Of a DNA stretch of 64,000 bases, positions 28,401 through 43,755 are shown in pieces (the first letter of the stretch is position 1; each line of letters starts with the position of its first letter). The position numbers and the translations under genes were made by a program. Under the pieces are notes generated by a model. It saw only the letters and a program-made list of their open reading frames with translations. It was not told the DNA's origin and made no database searches. The stretch comes from Yuukianura sp. NJ FZ-2021 (lineage: Eukaryota), in the NCBI GenBank assembly GCA_046563655.1, contig CM102285.1, forward strand, positions 1,550,001 through 1,614,000, read 5' to 3'.

Positions 28401-31400
28401 AATCGCATATTAATTTTATTCATTATTCATATTATTTTATTCATATTAATTTCAATATTAGATTATTTAAATTATTGAGTTATTGATTATTAAGTAGCGA
28501 AAGTATGAGCTACTTTATGTTTTTCCCCGAGTCTGTCTGTCTTTCCGTCCGCTGGTCAGTTGGTCAAGCTAGCTTTGGAACCGCTGGACCGATTTTCAAT
28601 CTGTCTTTACAGATGAACTTGGCATGGTTTGGGGGTGAACAATCAGTGTCCGGTTTGACCGGAAGTAGACCCCTTAAGGGTCAAAGGTCAAGGTCAAATA
28701 CATTTTTGACGGAAATCGGGAAAATGACCCTTACAAAAGTTATCCATCTCATCGAGACGAACAACTTTTGTATAGGTGACCTTGACCTTTGACCTGGGGT
28801 TCTGGAGATATAGACCTTAGAAGTTGCATAATGGGGTCACTTATGATATTCGCGTCTATAACTCCAGAACCACTGGAGCGATTTTCAATCTGTCTTCACA
28901 TTTGCGCTTCACATCCTCCAGGGGTGTCTAATTAGTGTCAGGTTTGACCGGAAGTAGACCCCTTAAGGGTCAAAGGTCAAGGTCAAATACATTTTTGACG
29001 GAAATCGGGGAAATGACCCTTACAAAAGTTGTTTATCTCATTGTGGTGAACAACTTTTGTATAGGTGACCTTGACCTTTGACCTGGGGTTCTGGAGATAT
29101 AGACCTTAGAAGTCGCATAATGGGGTCACTCATGATATTCGCGTCTATAACTCCAGAACCACTGGAGCGATTTTCAATCTGTCTTCACATTTGCGCTTCA
29201 CATCCTCCAGGGGTGTCTAATTAGTGTCAGGTTTGACCGGAAGTAGACCCCTTAAGGGTCAAAGGTCAAGGTCAAATACATTTTTGACGGAAATCGGGGA
29301 AATGACCCTTACAAAAGTTGTTTATCTCATTGTGGTGAACAATTTTTGTGAAGGTGACATTGACCTTTGACTTACGGTTCCAGAGATACTGACAATTGAA
29401 GTTGCAAAATGGCGTCCCTCGTCCAAATCGGGAAAGTATGACCTACTTTGTGTTTTCCCCCGAGTCTGTCTGTATGCCCGTCTGTCTGTCTGCCCGTCTG
29501 TCTGTCTGCACTGAAACTAACTATACCCCCGACACCACTGGACCGATTTGCAATCTGTCTTGCAAATCAGTTTATCATAGCCTTCGGGTGATGAAAAGCT
29601 TAAAGTTTTTTCAGAAATGTGAACTTTTCTGAAAGTTTTGAGTGGGACGACTGCAGATAGGCTCCCTAATTAATCATTTTTAATTACCAATTAACTAACC
29701 TTGGTCACTGGAATCAACTGGAATTCAACAGAGGAACTCTTCCCGAACACGCTGATACTACTTTTGGCAGTACCAGGGAGTTAATTGTGGGATTTTTTAG
29801 TACTTTCCGATCAGCTGACCGAATTTCGTTCTTGTGGACAACTACAAACACTAATCAAGGTAACGCAATACACTAGTGTCTCGGGACAAACGAATCATCA
29901 GTGGCTAACAGACCTGGTTAGGGTAACCCACAGGATAACTTGGTTAAAGTAATCCACAGGATAACTTGATTAAAATAATCCATCAAAACAGGATAACCAA
30001 CTCTGACGGTCAAACATATCTACAAATCGTTTTCACATTTCAAATATACGGAAGCGTAAAAGGGACATCGAGATACCCAGTTTTGAAGAAATCATCTGTA
30101 TAACCAATCTCCTGGAAATCTATCTTAACCTAACCCACAGGATAACTTGGTTAAAGTAATCCAAAGGATAACTTGGTTAAAGTAATCCACAGGATAACTT
30201 GGTTAAAGTAATCCAAAGGATAACCTGGTTAAAGTAATCCACAGGATAACTTGGTTAAAGTAATCCATCAAAACAGGATAACCTGGTGAAGGTAATCCAC
30301 AGGATAACTTGGTTAAAGTAATCCACAGGATAACTTGGTTAAAGTAATCCACAGGATAACTTGGTTAAAGTAATCCATCAGGATAACCTGGTGAAGGTAA
30401 TCCACAGGATAACTTGGTTAAAGTAATCCACAGGATAACTTGGTTAAAGTAATCCATCAGGATAACCTGGTGAAGGTAATCCACAGGATAACTTGGTTAA
30501 AGTAATCCCCAGGATAACTTGGTTAAAGTAATCCATCAGGATAACCTGGTGAAGGTAATCCACAGGATAACTTGGTTAAAGTAATCCCCAGGATAACTTG
30601 GTTAAAGTAATCCACAGGACAGTCGATGCCAATCTCACGTTCTCCCGTATCACAGAACATGTCGCAAACAACTCTTCCGTTCCTTCCACAAAGTAAGGGT
30701 AGTAAACGAGCTGCCGATTCGGAACCAAACGCTGGAATCGAACCAAGTTCAAAACGATCAAATCATTCGAACGACGACTTAATGGAGGCAATGACAAAAA
30801 TGTTTGCAAACTTGGAAACAAGAATTGAAACAAAAATTGACGTTAGATGCGATTCCATTGAACTCAAACTTGAGAAATACCAGGAACAAATTGAAGAGTT
30901 ACAATCCAAAACGGAACGACAACAAAACGAAATTGATCAACTGAAAAAATGAACTCCCGCCTTACAGACGAATTAAGACGAAACAACATTCTGATCCACG
31001 GACTCTCGGAAACTACCAATGAAAACACGTTGAACATCACCAACGACTTTTTTAATCACTATAAAGTTCGGATCAACGTGGAAGACGCATTCAGAATTGG
31101 AAAATTCAACCCATCGTCTGATAAGCCCCGTCCAATCAAAGTGCGCATTTCGACATTCGCTCAACGCATGCAAGCCCTTCAGCTTCGGAAGACCTTCATT
31201 CAAAATAAAGACATCTACTCCATTACCGAAGACCTTACTCTGGAAACCAGAATGGAACGGCAAAAAAATCGCGAGTTAAGACAACGGGCCGCTGAATCCC
31301 GAACTCTAGCGCCAGGAACATCCAATCCTACTATCCCCAGAACTTTTGCTTCGGCCACCCGAAGCTCATTCCCTGCCCCAAAATGAGGACTCGGCCGCCC

Positions 31401-34400
31401 TATCAATAGCCTACCAAACAAAACAAGTACAGGATCCTGCAGTGAAGCATTTTTAACCAACATGACAATCTTCTATTTGAATGCAAAAAGTGTAAATAAC
31501 TTAGGACAGACTTTCTGGAACGAATTCTTGACACTCCAACCTTCTCTTTTCTGCCTATCAGAATCAATGAAATGGGAAAATTATAAAAATCACATACTAC
31601 AGCAACAATATACAGTTCACCAAATCCTAGCCAAAAAACAAGACAGGGGACGTCCTTATGGAGGTTTCATTTTTGGCTGGCACAACTCATTAGACTCAGA
31701 AATCACTTTACTAGAAACGACGGAGTACTCAATATTACTAGCCGTCCGCAATCATCAATCACAATTTCTGCTGCTATTCGCCTACATTCCTCCGGACAAA
31801 TCCAACCAAACACTAGTGACTGATACACTTGAAACTCTGAAATTCACAAACAAACCGATACTGCTAATGGGAGACTTAAATTCAAGAACCGGGGACAGAA
31901 ACACCACTCCATTGTACAAAAGAAAAAGCAAGGACAAGTTCATAAATGGAAACGGGAGAAACCTGCTATCAGTTGCGGCCGAGTGTAACCTTACAATTTG
32001 TAATGGAGCAATAACAGGAGATGAACAAGGAGAAATAACCATGGTAAACCCAGCAAACGCAGGGTGCAGTGTGGTTGATCTTGTGCTCACATCCCAGAAC
32101 TGGCAAGGCAACGTTAGGGAATTGAAAATACTAGACTGGCATCACTCCGATCACTTCCCTTTGCTCGTCTCCCTTCAAAAAATGGTGAACCAACCGCAGA
32201 ATCACAGTGGCCTGACCCAAGAGAAAATAATAATTCCTACAGAAAAAATGGCAAAATACGACTTCTATAAACTTCTTGAGACCTCTCTGAATTACGACAT
32301 CAAGGATGCAAACGAAGCTAGCCTTCAACTACAACAAACAGTCGTAGAAACAGCGAAGGTAACAGGCAACCACACGAAGTCGAAGCCAAAACCAATAAGA
32401 CCAAAGCCAAAGTGGTTTGACTCGGAGCTGAACTCCTTGAAATGGAGGAAAAATAACGCCCTCCGCAAGTTGAGAAGGTGTAATGAAGAGAATAGAGCGG
32501 CATGTGCACAACGCTACATAGAAGCCCAGAAACTATTCAAGCAACAACTAGTCAACAAGAAATCTCTGTTCCTGTCAAATTTTGTCTCGCATCTCCACTC
32601 ATCAAAAGACCCGGCAAACTTCTGGAAGGCGGTAAAATACTTCACAGCCCAACCAACCTCACAAGACAAAATCCCGAAGGATACATGGTTCACACACTTC
32701 GAGGATCTGTTCAAAGTCCGTGACATTCCGAACCATCTACTCCCACTTACACCATTCTTAGAAAATGAAATACTAGATCGTGACATAACAGCAGTTGAGA
32801 TAAGAATGGCGACGAAGTCGTTGAAGACACGCAAGGCAACAGGTCCTGACAGAATCCCGAATGAATTATGGAAAGCAGCCACCCCAAAGCTTCTAATATT
32901 CCTGGTTACTCTTTTCCAAAATATCCTACAGAACGGGATACTGCCAACTCATTGGTGTAATACTCGAATACTCCCATTACACAAAAAAGGACCAAAAGAC
33001 CAGCCGCAGAATTACCGTCCAATATCGTTGATGAATACGATACTAAAACTGTTTACTAAAGTGCTGAACACTAGACTCAACAACTGGATAAATGTCAACA
33101 ACAAAATTTCAGACTTTCAAGCGGGCTTCAGAAAATCTAGATCCTGCACTGACCACATATTTACATTAATGGCTATGATTCAATGTCAGATGTTGAAGCA
33201 AAAAGAGTTATATGTCGCATTCGTCGATTTGTCACAGGCTTTTGATACTCCAAACCACTTTCTCCTCTGGGAGGTTCTGGGAAACATGGGCGTCTCAACT
33301 AAATTTCTAAACGTATTCAAGTGCCTCTACGACAACGCCACTACACAAATTAACACCAGCGAAGGACTCACGGACCCTATTAAAATAATGAAAGGGGTGC
33401 TCCAAGGTGAATCTGCCAGTCCCACCCTTTTCAATCTGTTCATTGAAGACCTCGTAAACAGGTTTACCAATTCATTACTCAAAGGCTACACTCTGGGCTC
33501 CCGCATTATTCATGTTCTTTTATACGCTGATGACCTTGTCATCACAGCACAGTCCAAGGAGCTGCTTCAAGAGAAAATCAAAATCGCCTCCAACTTCTTC
33601 AAAGCCAGAGGTCTCCAGGTCAACCTCACAAAAACAAAGGTTGTACCATTCCGTCGATCGGGGAGACTACGGAAAGACGACCTGTTCTTTTGGAATGGAA
33701 CTCGAATAGAAACAGTGGCAGAATATAAGTACCTTGGTGTGACCTTTCAATCTAACGGCACATTCCAAAAAACTGCAAGGAACGCAGTAGAGAAAGGAAC
33801 TTCAGCACAAGGAGCAGTTTTTGGCTTACTCAAGAAATCTGCGTACATCGACCTATGGACGGCCAAAATGCTACTAAATTCACTAGTAAAATCCACAGCC
33901 TTATACAACTGTGAAACATGGGGTTTACCCCACTCTAACTTAGTAGAAACGGTTCAACAAAACTACTACAAAAGAGTTTTCCACTTACCGTTCACTACTC
34001 CCAGGTACTTCATACGGCTGGAAACTGAGTCTCTTCCTTTAGAATTCGAAATTGTCAAAAGAGCCTGGCACTTGTTCGCAAAATTACATTCCAAATCCTG
34101 TTCTGACCTCACCAAAAACGCATATCAACAACTAAGGAAAGTTACGTCACTCCAACCTGACCAAAAATACAGCTGGTGCCTACAGCTTAGAGCTGCCCTT
34201 ACTCAAATCGGGGAAGAGGGCGCCTATGATGGTGGAAACATCCAAGACATCAGAGCAAAAACAAAAACAGTAATCAAGAACCTTGCGAACTTCTACCGGG
34301 AATCAGATAAGAGAAGGGCTTCGTTGTCCCGTTCCATACCACACTACTCTATCCTCGAGGAAGATTTTCCAGCGAAGGAATTACTGTCTAAACGGTTCCC

Positions 34401-35323
34401 GGCCTACCTCACCAGAACAGTCATTCAGATCCGACTGAACATGAACCAGATCTACCACAACCGAAAATGGCTTGACTTTGGCCAGTTCAAAGAAAAGTAC
34501 TGCAGTTTCTGTGGGGACCAATTGTCTTACTACCACGCTCTATGGGCCTGTCCACAGACTAATACACACCGAAACCATCTGCACATCCCACCGCACCAAT
34601 GTCCAATTGTATGGGTCAGTTCACATTCCAAAGACTTCACATTTATCAAGAACCTCCACATATTAAATCAAAGAGTGCTGTCAATGTTCGAGCCAACGCT
34701 GAACCGATGAACCCGGGCACCCCGGAAATTCTCCCCCATGGTACACATCATCAAATCCTCCAAATTTCATAATGGACTCTGTACACTTACATCATCTTAC
34801 ATCGACTTACTTACATCATCTTACTTATTTTACCTTATTTTACGTGTTTGACTCATGCTAATTTGATTTATTACTTTAACTTAAACGAGCTGCAGGATTT
34901 GTATTGATAGGGCAAAAGGCCAAATCAAATAAATAATTGATAGCCTTCGGGTGATTAATACGGTTCCGGTTTGACCGGAAGTCGACAATTTCCGGGTTGT
35001 GTACTAGCTACCTTTCGCTACTTACGTACGGCGTTTACAACGGTTTATTACAAGTTGAGGTAGCCTTGTGCGGTTGTGGTAATAGCAATGAGGAATATTG
35101 GAGTGTGAATGTTCTGCGACAAGTTGTAAGCGCTTGAATTGGCAAAGACTATGGTTACATAGCAATAAGAAAATTCAAAAACTAGTTCATCCAAATTTAG
35201 AATTTCATCTACACCGTAACTCATTCCGTAAGAATGTTCGACAAAGTGAAATTCTCTTTTGCTGCGTACAATATCACATACGCTAAAAACATATAAGATG
35301 CACAAATAGCTACATGGCGTCAT
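25419..35323 (-). CDS. Divergent IR-like protein D; exon 1 35323-35052, exon 2 28383-25419 interrupted by a MITE at 27291-27975
   Basis: Exon 1 is homologous to the other IR first exons (NLDELVFEFSYCYVTI...PIFL), with a phase-2 intron of 6.7 kb. Removing the MITE plus one TSD joins ORF 27915-28391 in frame to ORF 25419-27188. May be a recent pseudogene. Confidence 0.72.
27291..27975. mobile_element. Non-autonomous DNA transposon with GG..CC termini and 8-bp TSD (Merlin-like by end structure)
   Basis: TSD ggcctttg at 27283-27290 and 27976-27983. Imperfect TIRs of about 65 bp: ggttgaagt.aa.ttg.gctc.c.ttatgtaccc. Confidence 0.85.
28575..29420 (+). repeat. About 3 x 289-bp tandem repeat (central repeat of the HINE-like element)
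   Basis: ggtttgaccggaagtagacc at 28652, 28941 and 29230 (period 289). A fourth, split unit resumes after the LINE at about 34960. Confidence 0.92.
30140..30613 (+). repeat. 18-unit 26-bp minisatellite in the LINE 5' UTR (further copies at about 29930-29998)
   Basis: Unit ggataacttggttaaagtaatcc-aca with variant ggataacctggtgaaggtaatcc. A variant-A-A higher-order period of 79 bp is visible (30381, 30460, 30539). Confidence 0.95.
30626..31386 (+). CDS. LINE ORF1 (coiled coil + RRM-like domain), split by a 1-nt frameshift at about 30949
   Basis: Heptad-rich N half, then RRNNILIHGL...AFRIGK...PRPIKVR...SITEDLT, typical of L1/CR1-type ORF1p. The two ORFs overlap at ATGA after an A6 run. Confidence 0.82.
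31462..34710 (+). CDS. LINE ORF2: AP endonuclease + reverse transcriptase + C-terminal CCHC-like motif, 1082 aa, uninterrupted
   Basis: EN motifs MGDLNSR, SVVDLV, SDHFP. RT motifs NYRPISL, QAGFR, FVDLSQAFD, GVLQG, YADD, YKYLG. C-terminal CSFC...HALWAC. Confidence 0.96.
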   Translation: MTIFYLNAKSVNNLGQTFWNEFLTLQPSLFCLSESMKWENYKNHILQQQYTVHQILAKKQDRGRPYGGFIFGWHNSLDSEITLLETTEYSILLAVRNHQSQFLLLFAYIPPDKSNQTLVTDTLETLKFTNKPILLMGDLNSRTGDRNTTPLYKRKSKDKFINGNGRNLLSVAAECNLTICNGAITGDEQGEITMVNPANAGCSVVDLVLTSQNWQGNVRELKILDWHHSDHFPLLVSLQKMVNQPQNHSGLTQEKIIIPTEKMAKYDFYKLLETSLNYDIKDANEASLQLQQTVVETAKVTGNHTKSKPKPIRPKPKWFDSELNSLKWRKNNALRKLRRCNEENRAACAQRYIEAQKLFKQQLVNKKSLFLSNFVSHLHSSKDPANFWKAVKYFTAQPTSQDKIPKDTWFTHFEDLFKVRDIPNHLLPLTPFLENEILDRDITAVEIRMATKSLKTRKATGPDRIPNELWKAATPKLLIFLVTLFQNILQNGILPTHWCNTRILPLHKKGPKDQPQNYRPISLMNTILKLFTKVLNTRLNNWINVNNKISDFQAGFRKSRSCTDHIFTLMAMIQCQMLKQKELYVAFVDLSQAFDTPNHFLLWEVLGNMGVSTKFLNVFKCLYDNATTQINTSEGLTDPIKIMKGVLQGESASPTLFNLFIEDLVNRFTNSLLKGYTLGSRIIHVLLYADDLVITAQSKELLQEKIKIASNFFKARGLQVNLTKTKVVPFRRSGRLRKDDLFFWNGTRIETVAEYKYLGVTFQSNGTFQKTARNAVEKGTSAQGAVFGLLKKSAYIDLWTAKMLLNSLVKSTALYNCETWGLPHSNLVETVQQNYYKRVFHLPFTTPRYFIRLETESLPLEFEIVKRAWHLFAKLHSKSCSDLTKNAYQQLRKVTSLQPDQKYSWCLQLRAALTQIGEEGAYDGGNIQDIRAKTKTVIKNLANFYRESDKRRASLSRSIPHYSILEEDFPAKELLSKRFPAYLTRTVIQIRLNMNQIYHNRKWLDFGQFKEKYCSFCGDQLSYYHALWACPQTNTHRNHLHIPPHQCPIVWVSSHSKDFTFIKNLHILNQRVLSMFEPTLNR

Positions 35324-36323
35324 CTCTACTTTATCGCACCAAATCAAAATGTGGAAAACTTAATCGGTAAAACCTGACATACTCTCTGACGCTCCACTGT
35401 GCTATATTCTGTGCAGTGGAGTCTCTGCCAGGCTATCGATGCAAGACAACGTTCCATTAATTAGTGGAAAGCTTTTACAAGGTTTTTTTTTGTCAAAACA
35501 AATTAATAATAGCATGCACGACAACTTTTTCACCAGAATTAAATTTTCATTCTAAGTAAGAATGTTCGTTCAGAATGTCAAGCTAGGCCAAACTACCCTA
35601 ACCCTCTGGACTAACATTCTTAATAAATCGGTTGCAAATCGGAGTGTAGAAAAATCACAAAAGAGGGCGCCGCATTAGTAGATGCATAATAAAGTAGCTT
35701 TTAATTTTGTACTTACAGTAATAACGACGACGCAAAAGTCATTAGGAAACCTCTTTTTTTTCAAATTCATCGAAACTACAATAAGTTTTAAAGAAAAAAA
35801 AAAGTTGGAAACAATTGTTTTCAAACTTAAAGCATAAGTTTTAAGAATATTTCTGTATGTTGTGTCAGCACAAAAAATTGGGTAGCTTTCAAGTGCGCAT
35901 GTAAAATTTAATTGGACCTCCCAGTTTTCCAATCCTATTTACAAAAATTAAAAAAAACATTGCATGCTTCACGAGCAGAGTCAGTCGTTTTGAAGGTCAG
36001 TTGAAATTCAATATGTCTTTCTCAATGTTGAATTGGACGAAGTGTTTAAGTTTAAAGAGAGCAAGTTTAAAAAACTAACAAAAATGCAATTCAACTAACC
36101 TTGAATGCCTATGGCTAGCACAATGTTAATAGGCACTCTAATTGAATCCTGTTCAATTTAATTTTCATTTTAACCAATTCAATTTTTTTTTCTGAAATTC
36201 AATGCAATCAAATCGGAAATTGGCAATTTGCTCTGAAATTACGCCCCCTGAATAGCCATGCGCCATGTAAGGCCAATCTTTATAAACGACGTGACTTACT
36301 TTAAAAATTTTATTCGTCCAATA

Positions 36324-37682
36324 ATGTTGTCGTTCAAACAGCTCATTATTGTTGTTGTGTTATCTGCCAACCTTTGCAGAAGTTTTGCTACTGAAACAAA
36401 AGTAGTAGAGTACGGCGAGAAATGCAAAACATTACAGGATTGCAACAGAACCTTGGGACTGTATTGCAACAACGGTGCTTGCGCATGTCTAGGTAACATG
36501 CACTTCAACAAAGAAACTAAAAAATGTACTGCGAGGGTTGGCGATATCTGTAAGTATCCACCAGGATTTGAATCCAACAATGTTGATTATGCATGTCCGC
36601 CTCACGCAGAGTGTGAACCTAGTCAAGATGTGTACCGAACCGTAGTTATCCCGAAATCAATTCAAAGAATCGTCAATTTGCTACGATCAACGCATGGAAG
36701 TTCTACTTGCACTTGCAAAACAGGATACGCGCCAGATTTAAAACGAGAGTCATGTGTGGCTTCTGTTCAATACGGAAAGGAATGTTCTGCAAAGTCAGCC
36801 GCTAAGTGCGACGTTAGCATGGGCCTGATTTGTAGCCCGGAAAAAACTTGTACCTGCCGTGAAGGATTTCACTTTGACATGAAGTTGCAACGATGCGCCA
36901 AAAAACTTGGAGCAAACTGTACCATGGAAGAGCAATGCGAAGAAGGCACCGTTTGTTCTCTCTACCTTGTACAATACAGAGCATTTCTTTACCGATACCA
37001 GTCCAGAATTGCATATACGGCTCTCAAACAATGGGAAAATGTGGGTCATTGCGTTTGCGCTCCAGGGACGACGCCAAATGCCGATGGCGCATGCGTCGGA
37101 AACTTCCGGGCAGCTTGTTCAGACGAAGAACCGTGTCACACTGCAGGATTCCTTAGCTGCGTCGACTCCATTTGCCAATGTGATAACGGAATGTCGTCTG
37201 TTTTTGAAGATGATGAGCATGGCGGAAGTTGCCGAGTTGTGGTTGGAGGAGCATGCTCAGAAAAAGGACCGAAATGTACTGGCAATGCGACATGCGTAGA
37301 CGGCCACTGTAAAGTTCAGTGTGAAATTGGATTGGCTCCGACACCACTGGGAACTTGCTTGGCAACGCACGATAAATCCTGCGACGTTGCAACCGGGAAA
37401 CTTTGCAACTACTTTGAAGGACTTGCGTGTGTGAACAAAAAATGTTCCTGCTTTGACTCTTCGCTGACTTGGAACAAAAAGGCAAACTTGTGTGTGGCAA
37501 AAGTAGACGAACATTGTGGGAGATTCAAAATTTCAGATGCGGATATTGGCGCTATTAGTACATCCGACCCGCTCTATGCTCTTGGAACGTCAGGAGCTGA
37601 ACTATACATAGCAGGATGTGAGGACGGTACAACTTGTTTTAACGATGTTCTAACGGATTTAAATATTTGTAGAAAACACTGA
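36324..37682 (+). CDS. Intronless secreted Cys-rich protein with repeated EB/EGF-like modules
   Basis: Signal peptide MLSFKQLIIVVVLSANLCRSFA and repeated YGE.C....C....GL.C..G.C.C modules. No TM helix. Confidence 0.85.
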   Translation: MLSFKQLIIVVVLSANLCRSFATETKVVEYGEKCKTLQDCNRTLGLYCNNGACACLGNMHFNKETKKCTARVGDICKYPPGFESNNVDYACPPHAECEPSQDVYRTVVIPKSIQRIVNLLRSTHGSSTCTCKTGYAPDLKRESCVASVQYGKECSAKSAAKCDVSMGLICSPEKTCTCREGFHFDMKLQRCAKKLGANCTMEEQCEEGTVCSLYLVQYRAFLYRYQSRIAYTALKQWENVGHCVCAPGTTPNADGACVGNFRAACSDEEPCHTAGFLSCVDSICQCDNGMSSVFEDDEHGGSCRVVVGGACSEKGPKCTGNATCVDGHCKVQCEIGLAPTPLGTCLATHDKSCDVATGKLCNYFEGLACVNKKCSCFDSSLTWNKKANLCVAKVDEHCGRFKISDADIGAISTSDPLYALGTSGAELYIAGCEDGTTCFNDVLTDLNICRKH

Positions 37683-38530
37683 ATTGATCTGTCCTATTAA
37701 AATGTGGCTTAAAAATTAACTCGACAATTTATTTGCAAATAAAAAAAGTGAAAATACAACCGAACTGAATTTGAACAATTTGATTGTCTAATTTTCATTA
37801 AAATACTAAAAGAATGTAAACCACGTAATGCCATCTCGCATCAACCCGCAAAATTTTTACTTTTACATTTAATTTAAGTTAATACATTTACTGCAAGATA
37901 GCTTTTAAATACTTATATAAGTAAATTATATACAATAAATATTCATGGTAGTACATAAACTAAACTGATATAACTTTAATTTGTACGTTGTATAATATTA
38001 ACTGTTGGCCGCAGAAGAGAATTTTTCGTATACTTTCATTGCGTGGGTACAAATGTTGAGTCAAGTCTGTACTTCAACCAGAACATGCGAAATTTTTATT
38101 TTTGAAAATTGCTCACGCCCACGCCACGAGTGTTAGTCAAAAAAATAAAGACAAAGGAATGGAAACTGTCCTAAAACGCTAACCAACTTTATTTCGGGTG
38201 GTGCGACTTGAAGGAAAGTGAGTTACGTGCATATTAATTCGTAGTTAATTAATGTGTACGTTGCATAAATTCATATAGGAACTTTATTTTTTAGGACTTT
38301 CCAAGATACCCAGCTGATGAAGGGAAGGGACTTATTCAGTTGATTTGACTTGGTTGTAACTGCAACACTGATGTTCCTGTTGAGGTAGAACGCAGATAAT
38401 CGGATCTGTGCTGAACTGACCTCTTGGCCTTGTTTTACGCTTGGTACGGATTGGAACTGCATTGCTCAGGACCGACGACCGAGTCGACGGATTGTGTAGC
38501 GTGGTCGGATTCAGCAACCAAGGTGCAAGA

Positions 38531-40032
38531 ATGGCTGACGAAGTACAGTGTGTGATATGCATAGATTTTTACTCAGGTCAGTAGTTTCATTGCGAAGGAG
38601 TTGAGTGTTAAACACGATGTATTTATGATATAGATTTATTTATCAACTGTCCTGTGATGTAAAATCGTTTCTGATTTATTGCAGATCGAGAGAATGACTC
38701 CTTCATTGTCGCATCATGTGGACACTTGTACCATAAATTTTGCATCGACGAAGAACTTCGAAGACGTCCCAGGTATGATTTGCTTTTCCTTCTCTTTTGC
38801 GAGCTTAGTATAGTTGCGAAGTTTGTCGAATTTAAGTTTACTTTTAAAGGTGTCCAGTGTGTTCAGCCAGTTTAGATAAAAGTAACTTCCGGACGATCTT
38901 TGGAGTTGTTCCCAAGAAAAGGTATACACTCTCCTTTTTTTACTAATTCTTAATTGTTCTCGGTAGATATTACATTTCCGTTCTTATTATCACAGCATCA
39001 AAACTTTCAAAATTACTACGGTGGGTGATGCTGGAGTTGGGAAAACATGTCTTCTCAAAAGATATTGCGTAAGGAAATATTCCAAGAAGGCGATTTTAAT
39101 ATAAATCTAAATCTAAAACTGCTAATGAATCATGTTTTTTTTCAAATTACTATTTTGTAAATAATTTGTGTTTTTCTAATTGACTTTTAGAGAGACGCGT
39201 TTCACGAGCACGAGCGTCCCACTATCGGAACAGACGTGGTAAGGATCAACGTTAACTTCAGGATTTTTGAACTTCTAGGAAGACTATGACACTATGAAAT
39301 GTTGATTAATTTGACAGCTTAGCAAAACTGTGACTATCGGAGATGAGGACGTCAAATTGTCCATTGTAATCAATCACATCCCAACTTATTATTACCACGG
39401 TTTGAATTTTTAGTTTTATAAATAATGGAATACTTGTGTTAATAGTGGGATACCGCAGGACAGGAAGCTCACAGATCCATCACTCCACAATATGTACGTG
39501 ATTCTCAAGGGATTGTTCTTGTATACGACACTCTACATTCAGAGACACTTGAGAACTGCTGGGAATGGTTTCAAGTTGCGAACGAACATGCACCAAACGC
39601 AATCAAAATTCTTCTGGGATCAAGGAAAGATTTGACGTCGTGCTCATTCTTTGTTGAGCGAGGTGTTTGCCCATACTGTAATCGAAGTCCCTGTCCACCC
39701 AACAAATGCCATCCACCGACAGTTAAACAAATTGAGGTAGGACTTGACCTTCTACGCCTTTTGTGCCAATTTCAATACAAAAGTTTATTTTTGAACCTCC
39801 ATACGTCTTACAGGACATGGCAGCCCGGATGGGAGTGAAATTTTTTGAAACTTCTGCCAAAACTGATATGAATTTGGACATTGCCTTCCGGACACTCGTT
39901 GGGCAAATTCTATCAAATCGACACTTGGTCCGTGAAGCAATCAAGAACGATTCTACCCGTCGTCGAATTATTTTAGAATCTGCCAACGATGACAACCACG
40001 GCAAAGACAAATGTTGCAACTGCAACACTTGA
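38531..40032 (+). CDS. RING-H2 finger / Rab-family small GTPase fusion protein (about 294 aa); exons 38531-38576, 38685-38772, 38850-38921, 38996-39068, 39191-39238, 39318-39365, 39446-39736, 39814-40032
   Basis: All seven introns are GT-AG with matching phases. CVIC-X16-CGHLYHKFC-X10-CPVC is followed by GDAGVGKT, PTIGTD, KLSIWDTAGQE, RSIT, LVYD, GSRKD, FFETSAK and a C-terminal CCNCNT. Confidence 0.85.
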
Positions 40033-40493
40033 GTATTTAGGATTTAGTGCGAGTGACTTTATTTACCTGTGACAGAGACACAGTGTGACACGACTTAACT
40101 TGGGAGCAATGACTTTACCAGAAGCCTTTACTTGTATTTCATAAAGTAACTTGCCTTTAAACTTTTTATATTTGCAGAAATTGACACAACTAATTGTCCA
40201 ATAGCGCTGGCCATCCAATAACGAAACGAGGGTCTGAAGTTGAGCTCAATTTTTAATGTAAGATAAGTCTTTCAACTTTTTAGAAAACACAGGCACCTAC
40301 TACTGTATCCTTCCACTCTTGGCTGCTTGTTTAGCGTTAACTTAGATTTAAGTAGTATACTGTCCTCTAAGACACTATTTGGTACTACAGATTATGACAA
40401 CTAAAGTTATTTTATTTAGACATTAAAGTTTTAACCAAAGACTTTTGTTAATTTGACATAATGTTTTTTTTAATCTAACGAATTGACTTAATT

Positions 40494-40956
40494 TTTTTTT
40501 TTTTTTTTTTTGGAGAGTTAATTGACATTAGCATTTAGCTTTATCAACAGGGGTAGGGAATTTCTGGGTTGGGTTGAGGTCCTATGAGGTGGGGCGGTGG
40601 TACAGTCAGATAGTTGGCGAGAAGTTCTGAGGGAAGGACGAAAGGCTTTCTGCTAGAGCTGAACGGGCTAGGGCCCTACCACATATCACAGCTCCAGGCA
40701 AGTGACAGGAACAGCATCGTACGCATACCGGCCCACGACCCCCTCCACAACAGCAACTACTGACCTTTTCACACGCACCCATAACCCCCAAACTGACCTA
40801 TCATCCGAACACCCCATCTGGGCTAGGAAAGTGGAAAAACCATTTCTGGAAAACGACTTTCGTGTCGGCGACGCCGGGACTCGAACCCGCGCCCGTCCAA
40901 GGTGTTAGTAGGATAGAGCCGGAGCTCTAGTCCCCCCGGCCTACGGGCCTTGGACT
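40494..40956 (-). mobile_element. tRNA-derived SINE with poly(A) tail
   Basis: TSD gaattgacttaatt at 40480-40493 and 40957-40970. The poly-T run on the + strand is the tail. The GC-rich head has the B-box GGGTTCGAGTCCC on the minus strand. Confidence 0.88.
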
Positions 40957-41099: not shown

Positions 41100-42806
41100 T
41101 TATTTTGAAAGCGAAAGTACAATTGCTTTCGTTTCTTCAACAATGTCGTCAAGAACTGCGGCAACGGCGTCTTCCGATGGACAAAGACTTTCCGAAATTG
41201 AGAGTCGAATCCCAACTTCATTCTCGAAAATGGACAGGTACACAAAGATTCCTGTGAAGAAACAACCAAATTTCGGTTTTAAACATTTTCAAAATTTCAA
41301 AATCAAAATTCATCTATCCTACGAACATTTCTCGAATCCTGACTTTTCACACCGCTTCAGATCACGGGAAAACTGGGCGTGAAAGTTAAGTATTCAGAAT
41401 TTATGAAAAGTCAATCTGTCTTTGTGAACATTTGAAAGCTTCACGAACTCTCTTTGCACTCGTTACAAGTTTCGAAATTTTGAAATTCTCAAAAGTTTTC
41501 GCAACTTTGTCTTACCCGCTGTTCCTGGCATTGGTCCAGCGAAGTTGTAAAATTCCAGAACTTGAGCCCTGGATGCGCATACGGTGTAGTGTTTATTTGG
41601 CAAATGATCTTCAGTGTACACTCCCGTTGCTTGCCATGACCTCACAATGATTCGCTGAAGTGACCTTGGAAGGACACCGATTGCTTTGTAACTCATGTGA
41701 TACGTCCACGGTAAAACAGAATTTTTACTTTCCTTTAAAAAATTCATCGTTTTGTCCAATCGTTCTGCTTTATTTGGAATTCCAGTAAAAAGGCGGTTGA
41801 AAGCCAACGAGCTTCGATTTTTCTGGCTGTACCCCATGCGCGGCAGAAAAATCGGTTGGAACAAGTGCAGAAAAGGCGGGATTTCCATCTTTTTTGAAAT
41901 CATGAACCTCCGAATTCCGCCGGCAACTCCGGTCAAAATGACGCCCGTCCTAAACATTTCAAGTTCCATTCCCGCGGGAATTTTCAAAGGCGAAATCCCT
42001 CCAAGTGGAATGCGGTTGCTCAGAAACACGGTTTTGCGTTTGCGTGATAATTTTTTAGCGGGAAGATGCAAATCGTTTGAATCATAAGCGGAGATGTAAT
42101 TGTCCATCATTGTGTACGGTAGTTTTAGGACTTGCGCAATCGAAACTTTCGGGAATGGCTCGGCCATATTTGCATGTTCATTGAACAGTTTCAGCGCAAT
42201 TCCAATTCCTTCAGCGTCGCCTAAGCAGTGATGCATGCTCAAAATTATGACAGTCACTGTACCCCTTCCAGAAAAAGTAACGTTTGGATACAAAATGATT
42301 TTCCACGGACTCGTAGCTGGAGGCCAAGGATCGTCTGATAACACATAAGTAGTGATTTTCGGCAAATCCTGTTCGGTCAAGGGCGTTTTGTCCTCGGTAA
42401 TGTGCCGACGAAGGTCAAAGTTCGTTTCGTCCTTCCAGAAACTAAAACCGAGCCAAGGAACCGGGTATTTCGTTAATTCCGGATACGGTACTACCGGTTT
42501 GGCCAAAGTTTTGTCCAATACCAAACTTCTGCCGACGGCTTCTAAAATGTCGTCCACCGAAACTTCTCCGTCGAGTGAAATGCATCCACCAATATTTGCT
42601 TTCGGGATATCTCGGTCCAAGTCGGGTGTCCACATTGAACTTTCGTGGTGAACTAAGCCTTTCAAGTCTGGTCGAAATATTTTTGCTAATTGAGCAACAA
42701 TTTGACGCCAAAGTGCGAAAAGTAAAACTAGGATTACCAGAAGAGGAAAAATGGCGGAAACACAAATTGTACTGAAAATTATTAACATACGTCTACTTTC
42801 TGCCAT
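41100..42806 (-). CDS. Wax ester synthase/DGAT (WS/DGAT)-like acyltransferase; exons 42806-41516 and 41251-41100
   Basis: HHxxxD motif (MHHCLGDAEG), FWKDETNFDLRRHI, PWKIILY, and an N-terminal hydrophobic anchor. The phase-1 intron gives a C-terminal GIFVYLSIFENEVGIRLSI. Confidence 0.78.
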
Positions 42807-43755
42807 TTTTTCTACAAAGTGTAACAAAAATTTTTTGTTAAGTATGTTGATAATTTCAACAAAATTGATTTCGGAATCAGAAACAATCGCTTCGGTCACA
42901 TTAAAACGCACAAATCGACTGTAGCTCCAGAGCAGGAAAACTGAAATGTTTTTATATCGATGAAATTTTCAAAATCACAACAACAATAAATACAACGACA
43001 ACAAATTTTTTACTAAGAAGTTTGTACGTTTGGAGAATTCCATGAAGGAAATACATTAGTATGTAAATGTAAGTATTACATAAGGTTGGGATATCAAGAG
43101 GAAACAAGTTTTTATTATTCAAAAGAAACGACGCAACAATTGCCAAACAAAGGCAAAAAACTTTATTTTCCAAAGAATCGAAGGAAAACGGAATTAAAAT
43201 TTGAGTTATTCTGTGAATTACAAGTTATAGTACTTTAATTAACGATTTGTAAAGCAGAATGACAGTTTCTGGAATCGGATTTTGCATGAAGACGTTTAAC
43301 TGCGGTTTGTTACATAACTAGACCGCAATTTTTTTTAGTTTTTCAACTAGAAAAGAACAAATGAACGTTGAAATTTTTCAAACTTTAAACACATTTAAGG
43401 CAAAGTTGATTGCTGTTTCAGTTATAGCGAAGCAGTTCCTAGATGATTGAAAAAAGTCTTTTGATTTAACAAAATATGAAATTCAGGTTGATGTTTCAAC
43501 CGTGCAAAACCAGGTTAAGTTACAATAAAACCTTGAAACCACCAAACTCGTTTTTAGTTATCTCTGTGGTAATTGTTTACTCTGACCAAGATTAGAGGCT
43601 ATACAGACACACTATGCTGCGAATTTAACAGGGAAGTCTCGTCACCGCAATTTTGAAATGGCAGTGCTGGTGTAACAAGTGTCAGTTACATTTTTTGTTC
43701 TTTCCAATTAGTATTTTCTGAATTTGAGAAATTGAAATTAAAAGAAATTTAAAAC

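Follow-up and report, generated by a model that had tools for sequence, protein, structure and literature searches.

A springtail gene that joins a RING-H2 finger to a Rab-like GTPase in one predicted polypeptide

Can a Rab GTPase carry a ubiquitin-ligase domain within its own chain? The question is raised by a gene at positions 38531-40032 of the plus strand in a 64-kb stretch of DNA from Yuukianura sp. NJ FZ-2021 (hereafter, the window), in which a RING-H2 finger is predicted to precede a Rab-like GTPase; we call this gene and its product RING-Rab. Only a few couplings of small GTPases to ubiquitination are known: TRIM23 with its ARF domain, RhoBTB, Rab40, which acts via Cullin-5 and a SOCS box, and RING proteins with Rabs as binding partners in trans. 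A preliminary interpretation made from the letters of the window (the sequence-only reading) had proposed that the two domains are fused in frame. By comparing the joined exons with proteins of other springtails, we conclude that the RING-H2 finger and the GTPase are encoded by one gene as one predicted polypeptide. The fusion is not a prediction artefact, because three springtail proteins share its layout and align with the window protein from end to end.

Eight plus-strand exons join into an open reading frame of 885 nucleotides, consisting of 294 codons and a TGA stop. All seven introns are bounded by GT..AG and measure, in order, 108, 77, 74, 122, 79, 80 and 77 nucleotides; the phases 1, 2 and 2 that had been given for the first exons hold in the joined model. 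The encoded protein begins with a C3H2C3 RING-H2 finger, continues through a linker of about 25 residues into the Rab-like GTPase and closes with a C-terminus rich in Cys. The RING is spread over three exons. Exon 1 (38531..38576) contains the start codon and zinc ligands 1-2 (CVIC) and ends in phase 1, exon 2 (38685..38772) contributes ligands 3-6 (C-x-H-x2-H-x2-C) and ends in phase 2, and exon 3 (38850..38921) contains ligands 7-8 (CPVC) and a conserved post-RING motif (FGVVP) and also ends in phase 2. The remaining five exons encode the GTPase and the tail. Exon 4 (38996..39068), which lacks a start codon of its own, encodes strand beta-1 and the P-loop G1 (GDAGVGKT) and is matched by the Pfam families Roc (5e-5) and Ras (8e-4). 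Switch I with the G2 Thr (PTIGTD) is located on exon 5 (39191..39238), and strands beta-2 and beta-3 on exon 6 (39318..39365). Exon 7 (39446..39736) includes G3 (WDTAGQE), switch II, a variant G4 (SRKD) and a Cys-rich insert, and exon 8 (39814..40032) includes G5 (ETSAK), the last helix, a hypervariable tail, the terminal residues CCNCNT and the TGA stop. The guanine-plus-cytosine (GC) content is 44.2% in the exons versus 30.0% in the introns, and the three RING exons (42.7%) are no different in this respect from the GTPase exons (44.6%). A profile scan found a single copy of the gene within the window. Downstream of the stop codon, the only polyadenylation-like hexamer within 670 bases is ATTAAA at 40422, and a run of about 25 T is located at 40486-40512, about 450 bases 3' of the stop.

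The ATG at 38531 is the first in-frame ATG downstream of a stop at 38417, and the homologous proteins likewise begin five or six residues ahead of the first RING cysteine. The sequence-only reading had placed the RING on three small exons outside the open-reading-frame track, and this proved right: a search for a stop-free RING pattern across the entire window, in all six frames before splicing, gave no match, and the RING is absent from the track because its pattern arises only on splicing. A stop at 38964 shuts the frame of exon 4, no ATG lies between this stop and the P-loop, and a scan of 38775-39028 in every frame returned no ATG at all. Therefore, the GTPase could not be made without an upstream coding exon, which agrees with the earlier remark that the GTPase exons have no start of their own before G1. 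These observations bear on the possibility that the locus holds two genes, a RING-only gene formed by exons 1-3 and a Rab gene with its true first exon elsewhere. Retention of intron 3 would give a RING-only product of 76 residues, terminated eight codons into the intron, as such an arrangement would allow; however, there is no usable ATG from 38775 to the P-loop, the protein aligns colinearly and without gaps across the junction with a Folsomia protein, the homologous fused frame is uninterrupted in a contig from a relative, and the same layout is annotated in three other species. We regard two separate genes as very improbable and as the least likely of the rival explanations.

Proteins with the same RING-plus-Rab layout are annotated in Folsomia candida (XP_021962280), Allacma fusca (CAG7838646) and Orchesella dallaii (CAL8075497), three genera that span two springtail orders, Entomobryomorpha and Symphypleona. 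All three resemble the window protein in possessing a RING-H2 finger, the post-RING motif L..L.GV.P, a Rab-like GTPase and a tail in the same order, and their identity to it from the first residue to the tail is 40% (Folsomia), 36% (Allacma) and 33% (Orchesella). The spliced model aligns with the Folsomia protein over 260 columns with 40% identity and 204 bits, and both the exon 3/exon 4 junction (38921/38996) and the linker are free of gaps in this alignment. The gap-free junction and the recurrence of the layout in three springtail genera bear out the in-frame fusion proposed at the outset. The Orchesella protein differs from the window protein in a linker that is about 30 residues longer.

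The wider distribution of the family was analyzed in two ways. First, an exhaustive search with exon 7 against 1.84 billion representative sequences gave 8458 matches at E <=1e-3, of which the best 150 were examined. Most of the top-ranked matches are multi-domain or merged Ras proteins, in which the score is summed over several stretches. Pfam analysis of 40 among these best 150 of 8458 matches identified one protein with a RING before a Ras domain, the Folsomia protein (P0033; RING at 6-49, Ras at 77-245). The eight-ligand RING pattern is present in 2 of 153 stored proteins (P0033 and P0130), and alignment to the spliced model added the Orchesella protein (P0123). Two of these three RING-bearing proteins rank only 121 and 128 among the best 150 of 8458 matches, and more family members may lie below this set of 150. 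Longer proteins were also sought with exon 7 in a word index, which yielded 14 candidates, none of which scored, and a search with the Folsomia protein recovered itself and one plain GTPase (E 8e-15).

Second, a profile was built from the three homologue N-termini. It matches the spliced N-terminus of the window protein with 74.8 bits (E 2e-25, calculated for one target). In a large protein collection, 98 proteins were matched at E <=1 among 573 candidates, and just four of the 98 contain a Ras domain; these four score 111-129 bits, and the next match scores 45. The fourth of them, P0154, shares 90% identity with the Orchesella protein; a contig of 1402 bases (L001) encodes it as an uninterrupted frame at bases 264-1181, which is flanked by untranslated sequence and followed by an AATAAA. 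Since this frame is uninterrupted, the fused frame in a relative requires no splicing model. Among the other metagenome loci, L002 and L003 encode plain Rabs without a RING, and L004-L012 match the RING part alone.

The GTPase domains were further compared in a phylogenetic tree of 78 rows, comprising the window protein and those 77 of 152 stored matches with a coverage of 150 residues or more; the remaining 75 were excluded. The five RING-bearing rows form a group together with P0084, with a support of 94 in the Shimodaira-Hasegawa-like approximate likelihood ratio test (SH-aLRT), and the window protein pairs with the Folsomia row at 97. The P0084 sequence is an unnamed protein of 274 amino acids from a contig of 1319 bases, the frame of which is cut at its N-terminus. 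Constraining the tree to keep the five RING-bearing rows together improved it by 46.8 log-likelihood units over the free quick tree, with a p-value of 0.94 in the approximately unbiased test (p-AU). Because the five GTPase domains group in the tree, a single origin of the fusion within springtails is favored, although this is a quick tree with many long branches and does not constitute proof. On these sequence comparisons RING-Rab appears to be a small family, so far found in Collembola only, in which the window member pairs with the Folsomia protein that bears the automatic NCBI name "Rab-13".

The RING finger occupies residues 7-49 of the window protein, which match C-x2-C-x16-C-x-H-x2-H-x2-C-x10-C-x2-C. 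Its zinc ligands are C7, C10, C27, H29, H32, C35, C46 and C49, in cross-brace spacing; a RING cross-brace requires eight ligands at such spacing. All eight ligands are retained in the five aligned family members. Each of the three homologue N-termini reaches or exceeds the cut-off of 27.3 bits of the Pfam model zf-RING_2 (40.1, 27.4 and 36.2 bits), and in them the general zf-RING_2 and C3HC4 models outscore the Vps RING models. In RING fingers, the ubiquitin-conjugating enzyme (E2) is contacted by an Ile after ligand 1 and a Pro after ligand 7. Both residues are present in the window RING (Ile9 and Pro47), and at the family level the Pro is kept together with a hydrophobic residue after ligand 1, which is Leu in the two Orchesella-type proteins. 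The RING is followed in all members by the motif L..[LI].GV.P, of which the residues L, G, V and P do not vary among the three homologue N-termini. A role of this motif as a Rab-docking element was considered and set aside, as similar L..[LI].[FY]G motifs occur in the unrelated RING proteins P0162 and P0213; by sequence, the motif is more likely to be part of an extended RING.

The GTPase domain of the window protein possesses canonical G1 (GDAGVGKT), G2 Thr, G3 (DTAGQ, including the Gln) and G5 (SAK) motifs. Exon 7 matches the Pfam Ras family with E 1.5e-15 and 57.6 bits, against a cut-off of 21.6, and Arf with 18 bits. The best 60 solved chains matched by exon 7 are all Rab, Ypt or Sec4 proteins, 59 by name and one labelled GH01619p, and the best 60 for the Orchesella homologue likewise consist entirely of Rab, Ypt or Sec4 proteins. 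The nearest solved proteins to the RING-Rab GTPases are Sec4, Rab1, Rab8 and Rab10. In the AlphaFold model of the Folsomia protein, the mean predicted local distance difference test score (pLDDT) is 80.8, with 76-88 in the RING and mostly >90 in the GTPase core, and the top Foldseek match of this model is Rab8a, with a template modelling (TM) score of 0.91 on the target. By these comparisons, the predicted GTPase is closer to Rabs than to Ras, Rho, Arf or Ran. The RabF motifs reported by the sequence-only reading are partly kept. Judged by eye, RabF1-F5 read IGTDV, KLSIW, AHRSIT, YVRDS and LVYDTL in the window, and relative to the consensus IGVDF, KLQIW, RFRSIT, YYRGA and LVYDIT about 3/5, 4/5, 4/6, 2/5 and 4/6 positions match.

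Directly after G4, the window protein contains an insert of 22-28 residues with five Cys and a His (39632..39715, plus strand, inside exon 7), arranged as C-x8-C-x2-C-x4-C-x4-C-H. The Folsomia protein shares a shorter insert at this point of its chain, bearing three Cys and one His, and this insert is the low-confidence part of its AlphaFold model; the Allacma and Orchesella proteins, unlike the window protein, have no insert and possess canonical G3 and G4 motifs. A missed intron was tried as an explanation and rejected, since the insert has an exon-like GC content of 49% and its candidate in-frame GT..AG stretches are just 45-60 nucleotides long and are not AT-rich. The position of the insert is that of the insert of Rho GTPases, and the spacing C-x2-C-x4-C-x4-C resembles a zinc knuckle. 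A Pfam scan of exon 7, which holds the insert, returned no zinc-knuckle domain. The Cys-rich loop may form an additional, third zinc site beside the nucleotide pocket. At the C-terminus, the window protein ends in CCNCNT, with two or three Cys within six residues of the end, and Cys-motif C-termini are found in four of the five members (CSC, CCN, CC and CCNCNT); the Folsomia protein lacks C-terminal Cys. A double C-terminal Cys is the site of Rab geranylgeranylation, and the usual Rab C-terminal motifs are CC, CXC, CCX, CCXX and CCXXX. The prenylatable end that had been proposed is a putative one, as CCNCNT itself is not a textbook Rab motif.

How would such a protein work? We propose that the tail cysteines are geranylgeranylated and that the protein would, like a Rab, alternate between a membrane-bound and a free state. 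The lipid-anchored GTPase would carry the RING to that membrane, where the RING could recruit a ubiquitin-charged E2 or pair with another RING protein, and ubiquitin would then be placed on proteins near the GTPase, for example on its cargo or its effectors. The nucleotide state would govern mainly where and when the RING is present, rather than the RING itself; control by location is thus favored over direct allosteric control of the RING. We infer ligase activity, GTP switching and membrane anchoring only from the motifs described above. For the full reading, a 294-residue protein with a RING-H2 finger, a divergent GTPase of the Rab1/Rab8/Sec4 kind and a Cys tail that acts by the proposed mechanism, our confidence and our doubt are evenly matched.

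Several observations weigh against this reading. In the RING, exon 2 alone (28 whole codons) falls just below every Pfam RING cut-off, scoring 3.7e-6 and 27.1 bits against a cut-off of 27.3 for zf_RING_Vps8 and 5.3e-6 for zf-RING_Vps41, although these values refer to a single exon and not to the spliced RING. A Trp or another hydrophobic residue after ligand 6 and a basic "linchpin" residue after ligand 8 are tied to E2 binding and to activation of the E2~ubiquitin conjugate in characterised RINGs. In the window RING, Glu replaces the Trp, as the sequence-only reading had already cautioned, and the position after ligand 8 is in addition occupied by Ser, not a basic residue. In the GTPase, G4 reads SRKD instead of NKxD, and substitution of the G4 Asn, here by Ser, reduces nucleotide affinity in Ras and Rab proteins. 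The earlier description of a complete Rab domain is accordingly sound for G1, the G2 Thr, G3 and G5, and overstated with regard to G4, the Cys-rich insert and the C-terminal end. The absence of the E2-activating residues and the Ser in G4 suggest that the window copy has weak intrinsic ligase activity and a weakened switch with low nucleotide affinity. The C-terminal CCNCNT falls outside the textbook prenylation motifs, and the closest relative, the Folsomia protein, has a degenerate G3 (DTGGNY), CRSD in place of G4 and no C-terminal Cys. Because of these changes in Folsomia, the constraint on the GTPase cycle and the lipid anchor may have been relaxed in the branch formed by the window and Folsomia proteins.

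Two alternative explanations accept the fusion and question one of its halves. According to one of them, the RING is a non-catalytic pseudo-E3 that is stabilised by zinc and mediates interaction or dimerisation, which would make the protein simply an unusual Rab. Four of the five members have lost both residues that are linked to the binding and activation of E2, and the last ligand pair in Orchesella is C-x3-C instead of C-x2-C; in addition, precomputed Pfam assignments list no RING family for the two Orchesella-type proteins. At the same time, none of the five sequences has lost any of the eight zinc ligands, the hydrophobic residue that follows ligand 1 or the Pro that follows ligand 7; the Allacma protein, alone among the five members, is complete in also possessing the Trp after ligand 6 and the Arg after ligand 8, and the Trp is absent from many active RINGs. 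We consider a non-catalytic RING unlikely on balance, though it deserves serious weight. The other alternative is that the RING is active and the GTPase is a pseudo-switch, either nucleotide-free or permanently loaded, that serves only as a membrane anchor or a substrate-binding domain. It is in line with SRKD in the window and CRSD in Folsomia, with the loss of the catalytic Gln from the Folsomia G3 and with the large insert that adjoins the base-binding loop, whereas the window protein keeps G1, the G2 Thr, G3 with its Gln, the G4 Asp and G5, and the motifs of the Allacma and Orchesella proteins are fully canonical. A pseudo-switch seems to us distinctly unlikely.

Returning to the predicted RING-Rab protein as a candidate ligase, its place among known couplings of GTPases and ubiquitin ligases can be described by comparison. 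TRIM23 (ARD1) consists of a RING, B-boxes, a coiled coil and an ARF GTPase, and it resembles RING-Rab in that a RING at the N-terminus and a Ras-superfamily GTPase at the C-terminus share a single chain. The window protein differs in that its GTPase is Rab-like, according to the Ras and Arf scores given above, and its RING is of the H2 type. A TRIM23-type protein was rejected as an identification, given that the GTPase is not an ARF and that the linker of about 25 residues between RING and GTPase is too short for B-boxes or a coiled coil. Rab40, also a Rab, recruits Cullin-5 through a C-terminal SOCS box and is thus an adaptor for a separate cullin-RING ligase; as in RING-Rab, a Rab is directly tied to a ubiquitin ligase, but the RING of the window protein is built in and N-terminal. 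A Rab40-type protein was likewise rejected: Pfam assigns Ras alone to exon 8 (1.9e-4), with no SOCS box, and about 40 residues follow the last helix as a tail. RhoBTB is a further known link between a small GTPase and ubiquitination. RNF112 is reported to combine a RING and a dynamin-superfamily GTPase in one polypeptide that acts on endomembranes (PMC12012479), and by that account the GTPase is a large one of the dynamin/GBP kind and not a small Rab. Rabring7/BCA2 is reported as a RING-H2 protein working with a Rab in trans (PMC3738576), and the Vps8 and Vps41 RINGs of CORVET and HOPS are reported to meet Rabs in trans as well (PMC9592082). The likeness is that a RING-H2 finger is brought to a Rab-marked membrane and that the Vps8 and Vps41 RING models give the best, though sub-threshold, Pfam scores of exon 2, and the difference is that the partners are separate proteins there and are covalently joined in the window.

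A literature search found no paper describing a RING-Rab protein, and the main text of the Rab survey of Diekmann (2011, PMC3192815) has no occurrence of RING, zinc finger, fused or SOCS. The springtail proteins are present in public databases under automatic names only ("Rab-13", "RING-type domain-containing protein" and "unnamed protein product") and have not been given a family name there. The novelty suggested by the sequence-only reading thus stands with respect to the literature searched; the architecture itself was already in the databases and is less singular than it had seemed. A protein atlas contains two more clusters with Ras and RING families, which are leads without alignments. 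One has a length of about 389 residues and zf-RING_UBOX on 93% of its 56 members, with no taxa recorded, and the other has a length of about 291 residues and zf-C3HC4 on 48% of its 63 members, mostly from nematodes. In view of these two clusters, a restriction of the architecture to springtails is unlikely, and the combination of Ras and RING is likely to occur beyond them. We conclude that RING-Rab is a real variant of the known couplings between GTPases and ubiquitin ligases and, as far as searched, is undescribed in print.

The window also contains other coding features. The upstream neighbor of the RING-Rab gene is a single-exon, Cys-rich frame of 476 codons (36252-37682, plus strand) with a signal-peptide-like start and an EB module (2.8e-7); it is a separate gene, because its stop precedes the RING-Rab start by about 850 bases. 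Farther upstream, an intact frame of 1107 codons (31387-34710, plus strand) matches Pfam families for an endonuclease (Exo_endo_phos_2, 2.5e-9) and a reverse transcriptase (RVT_1, 1e-37) and looks like a retrotransposon of the long interspersed nuclear element (LINE) type, possibly a recent one; it is preceded by a frame of 149 codons (30937-31386) with no Pfam match. Downstream, on the minus strand, a frame of 501 codons (41463-42968) has no Pfam family at E <=1e-4 and contains an HHxxxD-like motif, HHCLGD, which presumably recalls acyltransferases of the wax-synthase/DGAT kind.

The reach of the finding is limited by a family that so far is known from springtails only, which are not genetic model organisms, and by a function that is putative. 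A bolder interpretation of the same sequences, which we hold only tentatively and with more doubt than belief, is that RING-Rab represents a springtail-specific family of lipid-anchored Rabs with a built-in RING-H2 ligase, the presence of which on membranes would be gated by the nucleotide cycle. In this scenario, the branch of the window and Folsomia proteins would have gained a possibly zinc-binding Cys loop at the position of the Rho insert, and the nematode Ras and RING proteins would be either distant kin or an independent invention. The family offers a built-in comparison between members with canonical GTPase motifs (Allacma and Orchesella) and members with degenerate motifs and an insert (Folsomia and the window). 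If the proposed mechanism is true, no link to ubiquitin in the Rab family would be more direct than a Rab with its own RING, which would also provide a compact natural model for the spatial gating of ubiquitin transfer by a GTPase cycle.

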